Source: Promethearchaeati archaeon SRVP18_Atabeyarchaeia-1 | GTDB taxonomy: Archaea; Asgardarchaeota; Atabeyarchaeia; Atabeyarchaeales; Atabeyarchaeaceae | Length of the DNA stretch: 64,000 nucleotides | Reading direction: 5' to 3' | NCBI GenBank assembly: GCA_037308085.1 | Contig: CP147779.1 | Span: 2,144,001 to 2,208,000 of the forward strand | In this document: positions 29,164 to 61,851 of the stretch, one piece after another | Layout of the letters: each line of letters begins with the position of its first letter | Numbering within the stretch: the stretch's first letter is position 1 | Made by a program: the position numbers and the translations under genes | The notes under the pieces: generated by a model | The model's database searches: none | What the model saw: the letters and a program-made list of their open reading frames with translations, nothing else | Told to the model about the DNA's origin: nothing

Positions 29164-29231
29164 GAGAAACCACCGTGATACCCTCTTGAATGAATAGCGA
29201 CTTACCCCGAGGGTAATATATTACTTCCTCT

Positions 29232-29360
29232 GGTTCTGTTATCTCTGCGGTTGATAACCGTTTGGGTTAACTTCTCCGCTCTGGCTCACCGCCTTATTTA
29301 GGGGTCGGATCACGGCTACATGTGCGGGGCGATCCAGCCTGAACCGCAGGCTTTCATCTT
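29232..29360 (-). ncRNA. Putative reRNA/omegaRNA scaffold overlapping the tnpB 3' end
   Basis: Hairpin AGCCTG-CGGTT-CAGGCT (29352-29336), whose GGTTC is complementary to the terminal GAACC; homologous to the MITE interior. 5' boundary approximate. Confidence 0.6.
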
Positions 29361-30465
29361 GGGTTTTGAGCAGGTTTAAGCAGGCGTTTACATGTCGATC
29401 TGTTCCGCACCATCCTAGGGTTTTCGCTTTCGGGTCTTGCATGATGCACCCACACACCGCGCAAATCCTAGAAGTGTTCCACGGACTGACTTTGACGGTT
29501 TGGACTCCCGCCCAGAGAGCCTTGTACTCGATGAAGCCCTGCAGCTTGCGGAAGCTCCACGAGTTCAACCTCCGCTTCAGTTTCCTGGAGTGTTTGCTTA
29601 TCTTCTGAATCCTCCCGTTGAAGCTGTTGACGCCCAAGACCTTCCTGTTAATCGCCCTGCGGATATGTCTAAGATCCTCGAGGATAATGCCTTGCTCCCT
29701 GGCTTTTGCTTGTCTAACTATCGCTGAACTCACCTGGTGCAGGACTGTGTTGACCTTGTTGTTCTGGTTGGTGAACCATCTTCTCTGAATCTTCTTGGCT
29801 ACCCGCTTGTCCTTAGCGTACTTGGCTTGAACCTTTCGTACACGCTCGAAGTATCCGTGCCTCGCCTCTGAAACCCTCTACAGATCGTGGCTTTCAATAG
29901 TTAGCTGTCCATCTTCTTTTGCGCTTGCTCCGTCCAACGAGCGTTCATTCGTGTCGTACGCGATGTAACCCTTTGGTTCGGCGACCTCAGCGGTCTTCGA
30001 GAAAACCAGCGAAACCGTGCAGGCAGCCAAGGACACTGAACCCAACTTGAGCGCGGCATCCGATAGGAACTGCGCAGCCCTCTTATGCAGGGGAACGTAG
30101 AAGTACTCTCTGGGCTTGATCGGTATTCTCAGTTTGCCGTCAACGAATCTGTAGGCCTGGTTTCCCAGTTTGGCCGTGAGTTTCTTGGCCCTCGGCGCTC
30201 TAACAATCCGGCGCCTTCTTTTCGCTTTCCGGTAGTTCTTCAGGATGGCGGTGGCAGCCTCGATGGCTGAGAGGCTTTACCAGGTGTGGAGACCGAAGCC
30301 GCTTAGCTGGTCGTACGTCTCGCTCTGCAGGCTGAGCCTGGAAGTTGCATTCCTCTCCAGGCCGACGCGGATGCAGTGGTTAACCATGGTTCTGAAGGTT
30401 TCAAGGAGGCTGAGAACACCACTTGTAGGCTCGTATGGTACCTGCACCGCTTTAACTGCCTGCAT
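29239..30465 (-). pseudogene. tnpB: TnpB/Cas12f-like RNA-guided nuclease (408 codons, two in-frame stops)
   Basis: Single frame from ATG 30465, with stops TAA 30277-30279 and TAG 29878-29880. RuvC-I YIAYDTNERS, RuvC-II IILEDL, WSFRKLQGFIEYKA, NTSRICAVCG, DRHVNACLNL. Confidence 0.92.
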
Positions 30466-30717
30466 AAAACTAAATAAGCCAAAAATCCCATTTAAACTCA
30501 CCAACCGCAGAGGTAACAGATCCCTTGCTCTGAAAAGAACGCTTTCTGAGACAGAGAAAGCTGGACATTCCGCACATATAGGCACGGACGCAATACGGAC
30601 TGCGATAGCGAAGGAAGAGTTGACGGATCCTTCTTGTTCACCTCGTTTCCTAGCCCCGCATTTGGATTGATTAATACGCACCTGAGGCGAGCCTCAAGCC
30701 AAGTTGGACCCCAGTAC

Positions 30718-34180: not shown

Positions 34181-36343
34181 CTAGTCCAGCTTCTTCTTGC
34201 CTGTTGGTTCTGGTTGGGGCTCGGTCTGCTTCTTGACCTCCGCTTCGTCCAGATGCCTACCACACGTTGGGCAGTAATCCTTCACGTGTAACCACTCCAG
34301 GAAGTCGTCCCTGTGAGCCAGACCACCGCAATAGGGACAGAAGAGGATCTCATCGCTATTCTCCAATCCTCTCTTGCAGACCATGCAAACCCCTGATCTA
34401 GGGCGCATCCCCGTCTTCCGACCTGCAACAGAGGACACCGCCAAGCTGCCTTTCACAGGCGCGCCGCAGTTCCAGCAGGTTTCGTCAGTTGATTTCAAAG
34501 AAGCGCCACAGCTCCGGCACCGCACGGAACGAATAGGGGCGATGCGTTCCCGTCTCTCTCCCAGCATTCCCGGTTGGCTTGAGGGAACTTCCGGCGGGCG
34601 GTAATTCGATCCACCCGTAGGTCTCCCGGTCCCGCCTCTGCTTGAAACTGCTAGCACGACGGCGAAAAAGAGAACAACGAACAGAATCACCACAGCGTAG
34701 AACTCCATAGGGGGATTGGGTTGATTCCCACCGCCAAAGTCCACCGTCACAGTAAGGAGGTAAGCTCCACTGCCATGGGATGAGTAGACCATAATGTACC
34801 AATCGCCGTAGTAGGGATTGGGATAGTTGACGTCTTCGTCGCCGCTTGCAGTTCCGCTCCAGTAGTAGGATAACGTTGTTGGGTATGATCCGCACGCCCC
34901 GTAGAGATCAAAGTCAGCGCCTGACGGGCAAGTAAGAACAGCGTGCATGTTCACAGCGCTATTGTAGAGATACATGTACCAGAGATCGTACTCGCCAGTT
35001 CCGCTCAGGTTGCCACTGACAGTGTAGCCATTATAGAGGGACTGCGGGGTGAGAGGGGCTCTCACTGTCACAGTCAGCCGATATGTCCCATTGCCATGGA
35101 GCGACTCGACCATGATGTACCAGGTGCCAGAGGAAGGATTGTTATATGTGGTGTTTTCGTCGCCGCTTGCAGTTCCGCTCCAGGCGTAGAATGTCGTTGT
35201 TGGGTAAGATCCATAGGCTCCATAGAGATTGAAATCCGCGTTTGCCGGGCAAGTTAGGACCGAGTGCATGCTCGTGGCTCCGTAGGCAACGTATATGTAC
35301 CACAAGGCATAGTCTCCATTTCCATTCAGGGTGCCCGTTGCAGTCATGCCGTTCGATAGGTACTGGAGGACGGGGGCGTATGCTACGTAGACGGTTAGTT
35401 GATAGGTGCCGTTTCCGCTGTACGAGAAGGGCATTATGTACCACGCGCCGGCACCAGGATAACTGTATATGACGTCCTCGTTACCAGCCTGGTTTCCACG
35501 CCAGTAGTAGCCCGTCAACGTTGGATATCCCCCGTTCATCCCGTAGAGATCGAAGTCGGCGCCAGAAGAACAAGTGAGAACAGCCCGCATACTCGTTGCC
35601 CCACCCAAGATATATATGTACCAGAGGTCAGAGTCGGCGGTGGCATTGAGGCTACTGGTTGCAGGAGTCCCACTCGTAAGTGGGAGTTGAGCGCTCGTGT
35701 ACAGTACGGTGACAGTCAGAAGATAGTTCCCTTTGGAGAGGTCGGAATAAGCCATGATGTACCATGTGCCAGCCGAAGGATTGTAGTAGCTCATATCCTC
35801 AGTGCTTCCATAATATGTGGCGCTCCAGCTGTATGATGTGGTGGTTGGATAGACCCCGACTTGACCGTACAGATAAACGTAATTGCCGGGGTTGCCTGTG
35901 ACGACGGCGCGCATGAACCTTGCTCCACCGGTGACGTTGATGTACCACATCTCCGAGTCTCCGGTGCCATTCAGAAACCCGATGCTTGATACTCCATTAG
36001 TAAGAGGCCGTACTGCATCGCTGCTTCTGTACTCCGAGGGACTCCTACTGGACGCGTACTTGCCCACGCGGTAGTCAGTTCCCAGTCTATTAGAATCGGT
36101 CCCTTTCCCTCCCGGCGTGGGCGTCGCAGTTCGAAGATGTGTGAGCGTCGGCAAAGAAACGTTTGGTGAGTGCGCCTGCGCCGGAGCTACGTCGCCAGCT
36201 CCGGTCAATGGGCTCTGGGTGCCACGGCTTGCCGACATCAACCCAGCAGACGGAGACAAAACGGTTAAGAACAGCAGTAGAGCGAGGAGTCCTTCCGCGA
36301 ATCTTAGCTCAAGTTTGCTCCTTGTATTCGCCCTACCGTTCAT
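34181..36343 (-). CDS. Receptor-like RING protein: signal peptide, four PPC domains, TM, zinc ribbon, RING
   Basis: Four ~105-aa repeats with ADFDLY..G.YPT and G.WYIMV (pre-peptidase C-terminal domain); TM FYAVVILFVVLFFAVVLAV; CRSC..CWNC; CMVC..CPYC..HRDD..W..CPTC. Confidence 0.85.
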   Translation of the reverse strand: MNGRANTRSKLELRFAEGLLALLLFLTVLSPSAGLMSASRGTQSPLTGAGDVAPAQAHSPNVSLPTLTHLRTATPTPGGKGTDSNRLGTDYRVGKYASSRSPSEYRSSDAVRPLTNGVSSIGFLNGTGDSEMWYINVTGGARFMRAVVTGNPGNYVYLYGQVGVYPTTTSYSWSATYYGSTEDMSYYNPSAGTWYIMAYSDLSKGNYLLTVTVLYTSAQLPLTSGTPATSSLNATADSDLWYIYILGGATSMRAVLTCSSGADFDLYGMNGGYPTLTGYYWRGNQAGNEDVIYSYPGAGAWYIMPFSYSGNGTYQLTVYVAYAPVLQYLSNGMTATGTLNGNGDYALWYIYVAYGATSMHSVLTCPANADFNLYGAYGSYPTTTFYAWSGTASGDENTTYNNPSSGTWYIMVESLHGNGTYRLTVTVRAPLTPQSLYNGYTVSGNLSGTGEYDLWYMYLYNSAVNMHAVLTCPSGADFDLYGACGSYPTTLSYYWSGTASGDEDVNYPNPYYGDWYIMVYSSHGSGAYLLTVTVDFGGGNQPNPPMEFYAVVILFVVLFFAVVLAVSSRGGTGRPTGGSNYRPPEVPSSQPGMLGERRERIAPIRSVRCRSCGASLKSTDETCWNCGAPVKGSLAVSSVAGRKTGMRPRSGVCMVCKRGLENSDEILFCPYCGGLAHRDDFLEWLHVKDYCPTCGRHLDEAEVKKQTEPQPEPTGKKKLD
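34740..36003 (-). repeat. Four tandem intragenic PPC-domain repeats
   Basis: Visible at protein and DNA level, e.g. TCGTCGCCGCTTGCAGTTCCGCTCCAG near 34836 and 35157. Confidence 0.85.
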
Positions 36344-52979: not shown

Positions 52980-54680
52980 TCACGGTTTGCCCGTCTTCTT
53001 CTTCTCTTCTTCTCTGAGAGGTCGCTTCAAGACTTTTCCAACTAGCGTCGTAGGTAGCTCTTTTCTGAATTCTATTTCCTTTGGGATCTTGTATGGGGCC
53101 ATTGACTTCTTAGCGAAATCAATGATGCTCTTCTTAGTTTCATCGTTTTCTGGAACGCCGGGTTTCAAGATTACGAACGCCTTCACAATTTCACTGCTGG
53201 GGTTCTTGGGGTCAGGTATTCCGACTGCTGCAGCCATAGCTACCTGGGGGTGTTCGAACAGCTTGTCATCAACTTCCCGAGGATAAACCTTGAAGCCACT
53301 AACGTCGATCATGTCCTTCTTTCTGTCAACAATGGTGAAGTACCCTTCTTCGTCCATCTTGGCTATGTCTCCTGTGAGCACCCATGGACCAGTCTCACCG
53401 ACGAGTTTGCTCTTCAGTTGGCTCTTTGTTTCCTCGGGCTTGTTCCAGTAGCCCTTCATGACTTGCGGGCCTCTGATGGCAAGTTCTCCTGGTTCGCCAA
53501 CGGGCATTAGCTTTGTTCCTGTCTCTATGTCAACTATTCTGCAATCAGTGTTTGGTATCGGCAGCCCGATTGAGCCTATTTTCCTGGTTTCCTTGTCTGG
53601 GTTTATGTGGGTTACTGGGCAGCACTCTGTCAGGCCGTACCCTTCAAGAATGGAGCCTCCGGTTACGTTTTCAAACTGCTTAATGACTTCTGGAGGCATT
53701 GGAGCTGCGCCAGAGTTGCACATTCTGATCGATTTGAGGTCTTCGTAGTACTTCTCTACACCCTTTGTCTGAAGCAGACGCATGTAGAGTGTTGGAACAC
53801 CTGGGAAGAAACTTGGCTTAGTGCTTTTGATCAATGAGAGTAGTGAGGCAAAGTCTCTTGCGTCAGGATTAAGAGCCATACAGTAGGCCATGCTGACGGA
53901 GGAGTTCATGCAGCAACTCATCCCGTAAATGTGGAATAGCGGTAAGTTGACCATGCATGTTTCTTTTCCTTCCTTTAGATCCCAAATGAACCAGTTTATT
54001 TGCTGCGTGGCATTCGCTACGAGGTTGTAGTGTGTGAGCATGGCGCCCTTCGGCACTCCTGTTGTTCCGCCTGTGTATTGCAGTGCCGCGATGTCTTCCT
54101 TCGGGTTGATCTTCACTCTGGGAGGATTCGGTTGATGGTCTGCTATTAGGTTTACCATCTGGTGAGCTCCTTCTTTTTCCTGAGCTCTCCGCGGTTTCCC
54201 GGGCAGGTAATCGACGAGTGATGCCACTATGACGTGTTTTAGTTGCGTTTCGTTCTTCACGCTGTTGACTATCTGGAGGGGTTGCCCGTCCATCGTGACA
54301 ATTGCGCTTGCCTGCGCGTCGTTCAGCTGGAACTTGACCTCAGGCGCAGTCAGCAAAGCGCTTATACAGGTCACCGCCGCGCCTGCTTTCATGGCTCCGT
54401 AGTACGCAATTATGAATTGGGGGAAGTTCGGTAAGTGTATCGCAACTACATCGCCCTTCTTGATACCCAAGTCTGCGAGAGCTGCCGCAAATCTGTCAAC
54501 GTGATCCTTGAGCTCTCTGTAGGATATCTTGCGCCCCATGAAATAGATCGCATTACTCTCAGGAAACTTCGCCGCCGTCCGGTCAAGCATCTCAGGGAGT
54601 GATATCTCTGGTATGTTCAGTTTCTCGGCTACTCCCTCATGGTAGTGTTTCAACCATGGTTTATCTGCATATGTCACCAA
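52980..54680 (-). CDS. fadD: Long-chain fatty acid--CoA ligase (paralog 1)
   Basis: QYTGGTTGVPKG, EGYGLTE, TGDIA, DRKKDMI, PTTLVGKVLK. Confidence 0.93.
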   Translation of the reverse strand: MVTYADKPWLKHYHEGVAEKLNIPEISLPEMLDRTAAKFPESNAIYFMGRKISYRELKDHVDRFAAALADLGIKKGDVVAIHLPNFPQFIIAYYGAMKAGAAVTCISALLTAPEVKFQLNDAQASAIVTMDGQPLQIVNSVKNETQLKHVIVASLVDYLPGKPRRAQEKEGAHQMVNLIADHQPNPPRVKINPKEDIAALQYTGGTTGVPKGAMLTHYNLVANATQQINWFIWDLKEGKETCMVNLPLFHIYGMSCCMNSSVSMAYCMALNPDARDFASLLSLIKSTKPSFFPGVPTLYMRLLQTKGVEKYYEDLKSIRMCNSGAAPMPPEVIKQFENVTGGSILEGYGLTECCPVTHINPDKETRKIGSIGLPIPNTDCRIVDIETGTKLMPVGEPGELAIRGPQVMKGYWNKPEETKSQLKSKLVGETGPWVLTGDIAKMDEEGYFTIVDRKKDMIDVSGFKVYPREVDDKLFEHPQVAMAAAVGIPDPKNPSSEIVKAFVILKPGVPENDETKKSIIDFAKKSMAPYKIPKEIEFRKELPTTLVGKVLKRPLREEEKKKTGKP

Positions 54681-54748: not shown

Positions 54749-55010
54749 GGTTCTGTCAAGTCTTCGGTAGGTGACTCGACTGGCTCGCATCGACTTTCAG
54801 GATTGCCTTTCCTTCTGTTCCGGGGGTTCCTGTACCATCGCCTCACCTGCGAGCCCCTTCAGGCCGAACCACAGCCCTGCGTCTGCTTCTACACGGGTTC
54901 TCCTTTCCCCTCCGCCTTCGGCTATAAAGCCACATACCGCGGAGCGGGGAGACTCTTAGGCTCACTATTCCGTTCCCAATATATAAATCAACCACAGACT
55001 TTACAGAGCC
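54749..55010 (-). mobile_element. MITE, 262 bp, carrying a TATA box and omegaRNA-like structure (copy 1, no TSD)
   Basis: Ends GGTTCTGTCAAGTCTTCGGT and ACCACAGACTTTACAGAGCC are 16/20 inverted; ~93% identical to 61592-61851 in opposite orientation. Confidence 0.88.
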
Positions 55011-55120: not shown

Positions 55121-56821
55121 TCATGGCTCTCCTGCTTTCTGCTTCTCTTCTTCCCTAATGTGTCTCTTCAGGACTTTGCCGACCAGGGTTGTTGGTAATT
55201 CTTTTCTGAATTCGATTTCCCTAGGAACCTTATACGGCGCGAGTTTTGTCTTGGCGAATTCGATGATGCTTCTTTTTGTTTCATCGTCCTCAGCAATGCC
55301 TGGCTTTACCACCACGAAGGCTTTGACCCGTTCGCTTCCTGGCGTCTTTGGATCTGGGACTCCGATTGCCGCTGCCATGGCAACAGATGGGTGTTCGAAG
55401 AGCACATCATCAACCTCACGTGGGTAGACTTTGAAGCCACTAACGTCGATCATGTCCTTCTTTCTGTCGACTATGTAGAAGAATCCGTCTTGGTCCATCT
55501 TCGCGATATCGCCAGTAAGCAGCCAGGGACCTAGATCGCCCGCAATCTCTTTTCTCAGCTGGTTCCTTGTCTCCTCAGGTTTATTCCAGTATCCCTTCAT
55601 TACCTGCGGGCCCTTGATCGCTAGCTCACCTGCTTCGCCGACTGGCATGAGTTTCGTTCCGGTTTCAATATCCACAATCCTGCAATCAGTGTCAGCTATC
55701 GGTGGTCCAATTGAGCCAATCTTTCTTCCCTCTTTTGAGGGGCTGATGTGCGTGGCGGGGCAAGTCTCAGTTAGTCCGTAGGCTTCGAGGACAGTTCCTC
55801 CTGTTGTTTGCTCGAATTGCTTCATGACCTCAGGCGGCATAGGCGCTGCACCAGACAAGCAGATCTTGATAGACTTCAAGTCATCGTAGTACTTCTCCAC
55901 ACCTTTGACCTGAAGCAGTCGCATGTATACTGTGGGAACCCCTGGGAAGAAACTGGGCTTCGTGCTTCTTATTATGGAGAGTAGCGAAGGGAGGTCCCTT
56001 GGATCTGGGTTGAGTGCCATGCACCAACCGAAGGCGACTGGAGCATTCATGCAGGCTGTCATAGCATATATGTGGAACAATGGTAAATTGACTACGCCCG
56101 TCTCTTTTCCGAATTCGTAGAACCAGCTGATCCATGAAATTGCCTGTGTTGCATTAGCAACGAGGTTACGGTGTGTGAGCATAGCGCCTTTTGGTATTCC
56201 TGTTGTTCCGCCTGTGTACTGTAGCACTGCGACTTCTTCTTTTGGATCGATCTTGAACTTCGGTGGATTTGGTTGATGGTCTGTTATGAGATTTAGAAAC
56301 TGCTTTGTTCCTTCTTTCTCTGCTGGTCTCCTAGGTTTTCCAGGGAGGTAGTCCATCAAGGCTGTGACAATGACATGTTGTAGTTTGGTTTCGCTTCTGA
56401 TGCTGTTGACTACTTGGAGTGGTGCACCATCCATTGTGACTATGGCTTTCGCCCCAGAGTCGTTCAACTGAAACTTGACCTCTGGTGGGGTGAGGAGCGC
56501 GCTTACGCAAGTCACCCTTGCGCCCGCCTTCAAGGCAGCGTAGTATGCTATGATGAACTGAGGCAGGTTTGGCAAGTGTATTGCGACCACGTCGCCTCTC
56601 TTGATGCCCAACTCTACTAGAGCGGTTGCCAATCGATCTACGTTGTCCTTCAATTCCCTGTAGGGGATCTTTCTTCCCATGAACCAGATCGCATTGTTAT
56701 CTGGAATCTTGGCCGCAGTTCGATCCAACATCTCTGGAATAGAAATCTCAGGAATATCCACATGCGTAGGCACTCCCTCGTGATAGTGCTTCAACCATGG
56801 TTTGTCTGCATATGTCACCAA
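55121..56821 (-). CDS. fadD: Long-chain fatty acid--CoA ligase (paralog 2, tandem duplicate)
   Basis: Same length (566 aa) and motifs as 52980-54680. Confidence 0.93.
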   Translation of the reverse strand: MVTYADKPWLKHYHEGVPTHVDIPEISIPEMLDRTAAKIPDNNAIWFMGRKIPYRELKDNVDRLATALVELGIKRGDVVAIHLPNLPQFIIAYYAALKAGARVTCVSALLTPPEVKFQLNDSGAKAIVTMDGAPLQVVNSIRSETKLQHVIVTALMDYLPGKPRRPAEKEGTKQFLNLITDHQPNPPKFKIDPKEEVAVLQYTGGTTGIPKGAMLTHRNLVANATQAISWISWFYEFGKETGVVNLPLFHIYAMTACMNAPVAFGWCMALNPDPRDLPSLLSIIRSTKPSFFPGVPTVYMRLLQVKGVEKYYDDLKSIKICLSGAAPMPPEVMKQFEQTTGGTVLEAYGLTETCPATHISPSKEGRKIGSIGPPIADTDCRIVDIETGTKLMPVGEAGELAIKGPQVMKGYWNKPEETRNQLRKEIAGDLGPWLLTGDIAKMDQDGFFYIVDRKKDMIDVSGFKVYPREVDDVLFEHPSVAMAAAIGVPDPKTPGSERVKAFVVVKPGIAEDDETKRSIIEFAKTKLAPYKVPREIEFRKELPTTLVGKVLKRHIREEEKQKAGEP

Positions 56822-61591: not shown

Positions 61592-61851
61592 GGCTCTGTG
61601 AAGCCAGTGGTTGATTTATATTGGGAACGGAATATTGATTCCAAGAATCTCCCCGCTCCGCGGTATGTGGCTTTATAGCCGAAGGCGGAGGGGAAAGGAG
61701 AACACGTGTAGAAGCAGGCGCAGGGCTGTGGTTCGGCCTGAAGGGACTCGCAGGTGAGGCGATGGTACAGGAACCCCCGGAACAGAAGGAAAGGCAATCC
61801 TGAAAGTCGATGCGAGCCAGCCAAGCCATCAACCGAAGACTTGGCAGAACC
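61592..61851 (+). mobile_element. MITE, 260 bp, carrying a TATA box and omegaRNA-like structure (copy 2, perfect 8-bp TSD)
   Basis: Ends GGCTCTGTGAAG... and ...CTTGGCAGAACC; CTTAACTC duplicated at 61584-61591 and 61852-61859. Confidence 0.92.
61648..61851 (+). ncRNA. Putative stand-alone TnpB-type guide RNA scaffold
   Basis: TTTATA box at 61615-61620. Stems CTCCGC/GCGGAG, GGCT/AGCC, GGGCTG/CGGCCT, CTCGCA/TGCGAG and CAGGA/TCCTG. GGTTC (61730-61734) is complementary to the terminal GAACC (61847-61851). Confidence 0.6.

Follow-up and report, generated by a model that had tools for sequence, protein, structure and literature searches.

This study suggests that a tnpB-only transposable element in the genome of Promethearchaeati archaeon SRVP18_Atabeyarchaeia-1 carries a TnpB guide RNA, or omegaRNA, in which one strand of a pseudoknot coincides with the tip of a terminal inverted repeat (TIR) of the element itself. 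The element lies in a stretch of 64,000 nucleotides, hereafter called the window (GenBank assembly GCA_037308085.1, contig CP147779.1, positions 2,144,001 to 2,208,000 of the forward strand), and the genome carrying it is a single 2.81-Mb contig. From comparative sequence analysis we conclude that window positions 29232-29360 on the minus strand probably represent the omegaRNA scaffold of a TnpB in an IS6-type element, with a loop-tip pseudoknot, a guide that runs from the target-site duplication (TSD) and a target-adjacent motif (TAM) that lies 5' of the TSD. The pseudoknot as such is known biology, a local version of a hallmark of TnpB and Cas12 guide RNAs. What is new is that the pseudoknot strand coincides with the outermost bases of an inverted repeat of the IS6 type, and that there is a large, previously undescribed clade of tnpB-only elements with TIRs and TSDs, accompanied by omegaRNA-only miniature inverted-repeat transposable elements (MITEs).

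The genome contains 11 family-A tnpB elements that are 79-86% identical to the window copy, 4 family-B elements with ~40% protein identity and ~8 MITEs, the 3' half of which is the family-B 3' end. The scaffold that we propose would consist of four parts: stem 1; stem 2, which is long-range and covaries; a terminal hairpin within the 3' TIR; and an H-type pseudoknot, in which GGUU(C) of the stem-1 loop would pair with the pentanucleotide GAACC that ends the element. Transcription would run through the TIR tip into the flank, so that the guide would open with the 8-bp TSD and then continue into flanking DNA. The target would be the unoccupied site, in which the TSD sequence is present once and is directly preceded by the TAM, TTA in family A and TTG in family B and the MITEs. 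The right tip would then be both a transposase substrate and an RNA strand, whereas the left tip would be a substrate only, which would lead to unequal conservation of the two TIRs.

Structure of the element and its predicted omegaRNA

The element and its parts, together with the two MITEs of the window, are as follows.

29232..30523, minus strand: tnpB-only element of 1,292 bp, read as non-autonomous (family A, copy T0), with IS6-type TIRs at both ends, from TIR and TSD mapping
30498..30523, minus strand: left (5') TIR, 26 nt, GGATCTGTTACCTCTGCGGTTGGTGA, tip GGATC
29232..29257, minus strand: right (3') TIR, 26 nt, read inward GGTTCTGTTATCTCTGCGGTTGATAA
30524..30531, minus strand: left TSD copy, 8 bp, AGAGCAAG, from TSD mapping
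29224..29231, minus strand: right TSD copy, 8 bp, AGAGGAAG, from TSD mapping; predicted first 8 nt of the guide
30532..30534, minus strand: position of the TAM-like motif, TTC in the window copy and TTA in the family-A consensus
29239..30462, minus strand: tnpB reading frame, a pseudogene in the window copy, from translation
29336..29352, minus strand: stem 1 of the predicted omegaRNA, AGCCUG / CAGGCU with loop CGGUU, from sequence and from compensatory changes in 23 relatives
29341..29345, minus strand: putative pseudoknot 5' strand GGUUC, -114 to -110 from the element end, made up of four loop bases and the first base of the stem-1 3' arm
29232..29236, minus strand: putative pseudoknot 3' strand GAACC, which ends the element and at the same time forms the tip of the 3' TIR (opposite strand GGTTC)
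29238..29258, minus strand: terminal hairpin GUUAUC / GAUAAC with loop AACCGCAGA, inside the 3' TIR, from sequence and constrained fold
54749..55010, minus strand: MITE 1, with a promoter-like box and a family-B-type omegaRNA; loop strand GGTTC at 54869-54865, end GAACC at 54753-54749
61592..61851, plus strand: MITE 2, of the same family as MITE 1, with perfect TSD CTTAACTC and end GAACC

Read on the minus strand, stem 1 is formed by AGCCTG (29352-29347) and CAGGCT (29341-29336) around the loop CGGTT (29346-29342). The tnpB frame opens with an ATG at 30462 and ends with a TAA (29241-29239) that lies inside the 3' TIR, and a TTTAAA box is present just internal to the left TIR. Only a single base, A29237, separates the terminal hairpin from the 3' strand of the pseudoknot, and the relatives share this layout of the 3' end, in which a hairpin is followed by 1-3 nt, the pseudoknot strand and the end of the element.

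An earlier note on this DNA had claimed that both element types keep the same hairpin, that its GGTTC is complementary to the last five bases of the element and that the 3' ends agree while the 5' tips deviate. The sequence bears this out. The hairpin reads AGCCTG-CGGTT-CAGGCT in the tnpB element and GGGCTG-TGGTT-CGGCCT in both MITEs; GGTTC (29345-29341) is fully complementary to GAACC (29236-29232), where the element end is fixed by the 8-bp TSD; and GAACC ends all three elements, the 5' tips being GGATC in the tnpB element and GGCTC in both MITEs.

The protein has features of TnpB. The RuvC residues D172, E264 and D357 and the zinc-finger cysteines are conserved in the intact paralogues and relatives, and the match to Pfam PF07282 (52 bits) is above the cut-off of 26.3, while that to the NCBIfam guided_TnpB model (89.7 bits) is below the cut-off of 100. 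Matches to TnpB and Cas12f chains in PDB (E = 1e-8 to 1e-5) are confined to the TNB region. At the RNA level, a predicted structured RNA with covarying stems overlaps the 3' end of tnpB, as expected of an omegaRNA. A search with Rfam covariance models, RAGATH-18 included, gave nothing relevant, either in the window region (E <= 10) or in 8 related loci (E <= 1), and the predicted RNA falls outside every Rfam family and structure.

Two repeats were also seen elsewhere in the window. A segment of ~1.3 kb is duplicated beside MITE 1 (52980-54281 and 55121-56422, spacing 2,141 nt, 71-73% identity), and a 321-nt unit occurs in 3-4 tandem copies of ~70% identity at 34742-35784.

Complementarity of the stem-1 loop and the element end

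A single complement of five nucleotides is not rare, since its chance is ~0.1 anywhere in ~120 nt and a few per thousand if only the loop is considered, and shuffle P values for the terminal 6-mer, taken locus by locus, are not significant by themselves. With the match in a single copy this close to chance, the case rests on comparison, that is, on position and covariation. Among the 22 copies in the genome in which both sites are readable, loop and terminus form five Watson-Crick pairs in 21 and include a G.U pair in the remaining one. Outside this genome, the loop of the first hairpin after the RuvC-III motif complements the last 5-6 nt of the element in ~115 relatives, three of them with one mismatch. 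A metagenome scan with a closer, 6-sequence protein alignment (a 12-sequence alignment was too divergent) gave 80 loci with protein identities of 33-78%. Nearly all of the 80 loci have a hairpin ~30 nt past the RuvC-III motif, with a loop of the form N-GGUU followed by C, as well as a terminal hairpin and the end ...CAGAACC.

An alignment of 23 relatives lends strong support to the rest of the scaffold. Stems 1 and 2 are paired at 95-99% and contain 98 double-changed cells, and their covariation score of 0.65, compared with 0.20 after shuffling, was reached by 0 of 500 shuffles. The five pairs of the pseudoknot are 100% paired in this alignment and nearly invariant, with two G.U pairs; the only double change among them is from G-C to A-U in one relative, L097 (AGUUC/GAACU). 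Because of this near-invariance, most of the covariation has to come from sister clades of the IS607 type.

These sister clades are represented by TnpB genes of other Asgard genomes with 25-35% identity, which have the same RNA layout and other termini. Stem 1, whose loop contains the pseudoknot strand, is followed by a middle stem, a terminal hairpin and a pseudoknot strand at the extreme end of the element. Their loops and termini are listed below.

Loop CCGUUC, terminus GAACGG: 10 loci
Loop CCGUUG, terminus CAACGG: 4 loci in 3 genomes
Loop GGGUUC, terminus GAACCC: L020 and L033
Loop GGGUUU, terminus AAACCC: L028
Loop CAGGCU, terminus AGCCUG: L024
Loop CAGGGU, terminus ACCCUG: L016 (degraded copy)
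Loop GUGAAU, terminus AUUCAC: L142
Loop GUGAGC, terminus GUUCAC: L034 (one G.U)

Compensatory switches are evident among these haplotypes, from CCGUUC/GAACGG to CCGUUG/CAACGG and from GGGUUC/GAACCC to GGGUUU/AAACCC. The element ends were fixed independently of the loop, by the point at which the copies cease to be homologous, which directly follows the paired strand, and by the TSDs in the TIR elements. When ~250 nt upstream were searched for the best complement of the terminal 6-mer, it was the stem-1 loop in 20 of the 22 non-IS6 loci, and in the other two (L010 and L145) the best site was also the stem-1 loop, with one C.A mismatch. In an alignment of 16 IS607-type sequences the pseudoknot is 97.9% paired, with the variable pair being CG in 10 and GC in 6 and never unpaired, and pairing falls to 30-56% when the partner is shifted by 1-3 columns. 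The earlier note had reasoned that loop and terminus varying independently across homologues would speak against the pseudoknot. Over eleven loop/terminus haplotypes, however, 63 of 64 positions pair, a value equalled by 0 of 20,000 shuffles, and cross-pairing between groups fails. We infer that the omegaRNA exists and ends in the flank, and that the pseudoknot forms.

The sister clades differ from the window element in their mobile context. A serine recombinase (Resolvase plus MerR helix-turn-helix domains) is encoded upstream of the non-TIR tnpB genes, for example at L119:2651-3286 (minus strand) and L033:671-1129 (plus strand), and pairwise homology at the left ends of these elements continues into the recombinase gene. 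A TIR search around the distant, non-TIR relatives gave matches at noise level only.

IS6-type ends and asymmetry of the two tips

Members of the IS6 family are recognized by GG at positions 1-2 and G at position 7 of their ends and by an 8-bp TSD, and archaeal members with longer TIRs are known (PMC6807381, PMC7986276). IS200/IS605 and IS607, the usual hosts of TnpB, have neither TIRs nor TSDs (PMC13565253). In the elements studied here the right ends read GGTTCTG, and 36 elements have TSD copies that agree at 7-8/8 positions, in line with the IS6 pattern. The presence of TIRs and 8-bp TSDs sets them apart from IS200/IS605, which is defined by the lack of both, by subterminal hairpins and by a Y1 TnpA. 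It also sets them apart from IS607, which has a serine-recombinase TnpA and neither TIRs nor TSDs, as does the lack of a recombinase in the element; the sister clades do show the IS607 features.

Two larger elements in the same genome, at genome positions 549276-555829 and 614149-618567, have the same TIRs and 8-bp TSDs. The transposase of the former, with a TSD matching at 8/8, is a protein of 383 aa with SWIM and DDE_Tnp_IS240 domains, which scores 120.7 bits against the NCBIfam IS6 model, just below the cut-off of 125. The locus around it (L038, genome 548700-556400) encodes, besides this intact IS6-like transposase, a 995-aa Eco57I-like methylase/restriction protein as a passenger. The locus around the second element (L037, genome 613600-619100) encodes a truncated transposase paralogue, an HxlR-type regulator and an aspartyl-protease-like open reading frame. 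The two transposase paralogues share 78% identity and reside in elements with A-type and B-type TIRs, respectively. Among the 41 relatives searched, close homologues of the 383-aa transposase are found only in the three Atabeyarchaeia genomes that have TIR-type tnpB elements and in one other genome. In another Asgard genome a compact IS6-like insertion sequence of 1.23 kb (L153:1339-2566) has TIRs GGTTCTGGTGCCAAATACGGTTGGT that are homologous to those of the tnpB elements and an 8-bp TSD, AAAAGGGT. Given the IS6-type ends, the 8-bp TSDs and the IS6-like transposases in larger elements with the same ends, the best reading of the tnpB elements and MITEs is that they are non-autonomous, belong to the IS6 type and would depend on a DDE transposase of this type acting in trans, and the IS6-like transposase presumably uses these ends.

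The earlier note had also proposed that the 3' TIR is constrained both as a transposase substrate and as an RNA structure, and a comparison of the two TIRs is in line with this. In 36 non-redundant elements with the TSD matching at 7-8/8 positions, the tip is GGTTC in 34/36 on the right and in 9/36 on the left, where 19 forms occur (Fisher P = 1e-9, a value inflated by the relatedness of the copies by descent). This asymmetry fits an added RNA constraint on the right end, and the results together support, at the sequence level, the idea that the right TIR tip is under two constraints, as transposase substrate and as RNA strand.

A clade-specific motif directly 5' of the TSD

A further one-sided feature is a clade-specific motif that abuts the left TSD on its 5' side, occupies positions -11 to -9 relative to the left tip and is confined to this side of the element. 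It was counted in TSD-verified elements and in a larger left-tip-anchored set.

Family A, TSD-verified: TTA in 6/10 (background 0.9%, P = 1e-10)
Family A, larger set: TTA or CTA in 10/13
Family B and MITEs, TSD-verified: TTG in 10/12 (background 1.9%, P = 4e-16)
Family B, MITEs and B-like metagenomic relatives, larger set: TTG in 21 and ATG in 4 of 38
Third clade, larger set: TTT in 5/5, preceded by C in four (CTTT)

The third clade of tnpB elements with TIRs and TSDs is found at L045, L046, L064, L082 and L087, and its TIR has the form ...TCTAATCTAGGG.... To the right of the elements, the motif is seen as its reverse complement in 1/10 for family A and in 1/12 for family B with the MITEs. We rejected a palindromic target preference, as this reverse complement is not enriched on the right.

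Some elements combine a TnpB or omegaRNA of one clade with TIRs of another subtype. B-type TnpB genes within A-type TIRs (L009, L022 and L031) are preceded by TTG, TTG and ATG, an A-type TnpB within MITE-type TIRs (T5) by TTA, and a MITE with an A-type TIR and a B-type omegaRNA (M_763) by TTG. Since the third base of the motif follows the TnpB/omegaRNA clade and not the TIR subtype, a TAM is favoured over a transposase preference, and we infer that the TTA/TTG/CTTT motif is the TAM. If the guide starts at the TSD, the TAM must lie 5' of the single TSD in the unoccupied site. The motif sits at this place, which gives indirect support to a guide start at the TSD.

In the window element, the TAM position and the left TSD (30524-30534) lie ~35 nt upstream of the TTTAAA box (about 30485-30490) that precedes tnpB. 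It is pure speculation that a partial, 8-nt guide match beside the element's own promoter could permit self-regulation.

Alternative explanations

Several observations weigh against a loop-tip pseudoknot in an omegaRNA whose guide starts at the TSD. Variation of the pseudoknot is almost absent inside the IS6-type clade; one mismatch each occurs in L010, L145 (C.A) and L039 (A.C); and the sequences share descent, so that the P values overstate their independence. In the window copy, two in-frame stops (TAA at 30279-30277 and TAG at 29880-29878) make tnpB a pseudogene, so that this copy, if functional at all, would rely on intact paralogues, and the TAM position reads TTC instead of TTA. Movement of IS6 elements is believed to proceed by replicative cointegration (PMC6807381, PMC7986276), and it is therefore not obvious that TnpB would play its classic part here, in which an excised copy is restored; more likely, it would home into unoccupied alleles instead of serving to repair an excised donor. 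The near-invariance invites the view that there is no pseudoknot at all, and that GGTTC is kept for a conserved Arg-Phe in the TnpB C-terminus and GAACC as the IS6 tip, with their complementarity being a frozen coincidence. The stem-1 loop indeed lies within the tnpB frame and codes for Arg-Phe (as part of L-R-F) in families A and B and most metagenomic relatives, both strands are nearly fixed in this clade, and the 5-mer match in one element is near chance. However, GGTTC is retained in the non-coding MITEs, and the codons are held to NGG-TTC well beyond usage elsewhere in the same genes: the Arg codon at the loop is always NGG, which makes up 37% of the Arg codons elsewhere in these genes, and the Phe codon is TTC in 68/69. 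The base preceding GGTTC is free to be A, C or T, the last giving a Trp codon. Moreover, the sister clades code for unrelated peptides at the loop position and have other termini, and yet keep the complementarity through compensatory changes, and both sides have changed together in L097. These findings point to a constraint on GGTTC that acts on the RNA and not on the protein alone, and we regard a frozen coincidence as very improbable. A tRNA T-loop-like reading of GGTTC was also tried and dropped, as the loop has 5 nt and the motif straddles the loop-stem junction.

Folding energies offer a different objection. On the minus strand, the sequence CUGCGGUU (29349-29342), which includes part of the 5' half of stem 1, is complementary at 8/8 positions to AACCGCAG (29252-29245) in the loop of the TIR hairpin, a competing 8-bp helix of the window copy that the earlier note did not mention. 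The minimum free energy (MFE) fold of the single sequence (-36.8 kcal/mol) picks this helix and not stem 1, whereas a fold in which stem 1 and the TIR hairpin are enforced and the pseudoknot strands left unpaired has -30.5 kcal/mol, with the -4.7 kcal/mol of the pseudoknot duplex uncounted; as isolated duplexes, the 8-bp helix has -11.8 kcal/mol against the -4.7 of the 5-bp pseudoknot, which in addition competes with the closing G-C pair of stem 1. The partner of stem 1 might thus be the inner 3' TIR and not the tip, either as a long-range helix of CUGCGGUU with AACCGCAG or as a loop-loop kiss (CGGUU with AACCG), or else CTGCGGTT might be an internal DNA repeat bound by the transposase. The same 8-mer is also present in the 5' TIR of the window element, and partial complementarity, 5-7 of 8, is seen across families A, B and the MITEs. 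Against this, the complementarity is 8/8 in only 5/22 genome copies, while the others have 1-3 mismatches, none of them compensated; relatives with a different TIR interior (e.g. CTTGTCGGCTC) lack the helix and retain the terminal pairing; the IS607-type relatives have no equivalent; and the helix would abolish stem 1, which is itself strongly backed by covariation. A role of the inner TIR in place of the tip therefore seems to us improbable. The pseudoknot could also be real and the excess of GGTTC on the right, together with the flanking TTA/TTG, still be the work of the IS6-like transposase, through asymmetric end requirements and a target preference. Functional differences between left and right ends occur in many DDE systems, and a property of the transposase could likewise give the tip asymmetry; the existence of two paralogues in elements with A-type and B-type TIRs makes two target preferences conceivable. 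The motif is one-sided, however, where symmetric ends should give a palindromic preference, it tracks the TnpB clade and not the TIR subtype, and GGTTC is perfect at both ends of the transposase-bearing elements. We consider this explanation unlikely, and a loop-tip pseudoknot with the guide running from the TSD remains the reading that we prefer.

Origin, significance and comparison with known systems

Our results provide a testable model of an archaeal TnpB guide RNA, with scaffold limits, a pseudoknot, a guide start and the predicted TAMs TTA, TTG and CTTT. In this model the recognition end of a DDE transposon overlaps by a few bases with an RNA-guided nuclease module to which it is unrelated. 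This bears on how TnpB has spread among transposon superfamilies, for which the main examples so far are IS630 and the eukaryotic Fanzors. The MITEs, in turn, would act as mobile cassettes with a guide RNA as their only cargo. TnpB, IS6 and MITEs go unmentioned in the paper on mobile elements of Atabeyarchaeia.

How such an overlap arose is a matter on which we can be only tentative. The right ends of IS607-type elements, CAGAAC followed by GG or CCC, almost match the IS6 tip CAGAACC. We speculate, and hold it possible although rather doubtful, that the overlap was the adapter that let an IS607-type TnpB/omegaRNA module enter an IS6-type transposon, with TnpB then acting as a homing drive on unoccupied alleles recognized by TAM, TSD and flank. 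If so, one inverted copy of this end at the left would have made the module an IS6 substrate, and the pseudoknot strand would have been fixed as the TIR tip. It would also explain surviving insertions beside a clade-specific TAM in one orientation, with the transposase itself having no such preference.

The closest non-TIR protein relatives are the IS607-type tnpB genes of other Asgard genomes (L119/L012, L011, L032, L033 and others). They have the same RNA layout, but differ in having a serine recombinase upstream, no detected TIR and the termini GAACGG, CAACGG, GAACCC or AAACCC instead of GAACC. With the archaeal clades of IS6 (IS6/IS26) the elements share the TIR GGTTCTG, the 8-bp TSD and larger same-ended elements with a DDE_Tnp_IS240 transposase, while they differ in having no transposase of their own and only tnpB or an omegaRNA. 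Reviews of the IS6 family list two MITEs and only one member with a passenger, and TnpB does not appear in them (PMC6807381, PMC7986276). According to excerpts of two reports (PMC10691335, PMC10432273), IS630-linked TnpB branches, which have symmetrical ends, and Fanzors in TIR transposons likewise have a nuclease between the inverted repeats of a DDE transposon and an omegaRNA that enters the right repeat, although the transposons are IS630, Mariner and others, not IS6. The same excerpts from the literature on DDE-associated TnpB and Fanzor contain no report of a pseudoknot strand that overlaps the TIR tip, and the omegaRNA of the Fanzor SpuFz1 is without a pseudoknot. Among Cas12 guide RNAs, such as the single guide RNA of Cas12f and the CRISPR RNAs of Cas12, a guide-proximal pseudoknot is conserved as well, but these RNAs are derived from CRISPR arrays and a trans-activating CRISPR RNA and not from a transposon end.

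The best structural counterpart is the omegaRNA of ISDra2 TnpB, an IS200/IS605 element studied by cryo-electron microscopy (Nakagawa et al. 2023, PMC10097598). ISDra2 differs from the window element in having no TIRs, no TSD and a Y1 TnpA; the two RNAs have no detectable sequence similarity, and the proteins match weakly over the TNB/zinc-ribbon region. In both, nevertheless, a scaffold of ~115-120 nt shares sequence with the 3' end of tnpB, the loop of stem 1, at about -105 to -114, pairs, or is predicted to pair, with bases just before the guide, and the guide is flanking DNA. In ISDra2, stem 1 is formed by -116..-111 with -91..-86, and the pseudoknot, in which -6..-2 and thus not the very last bases pair with -102..-106 in the stem-1 loop, stacks coaxially on stem 1 (PMC10097598). 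In the window element -5..-1 would pair with -114..-110, with one unpaired loop base before the pseudoknot strand and none after it, and this lack of a spacer gives a classical H-type arrangement that would permit coaxial stacking. The geometry predicted here thus agrees with that of ISDra2.

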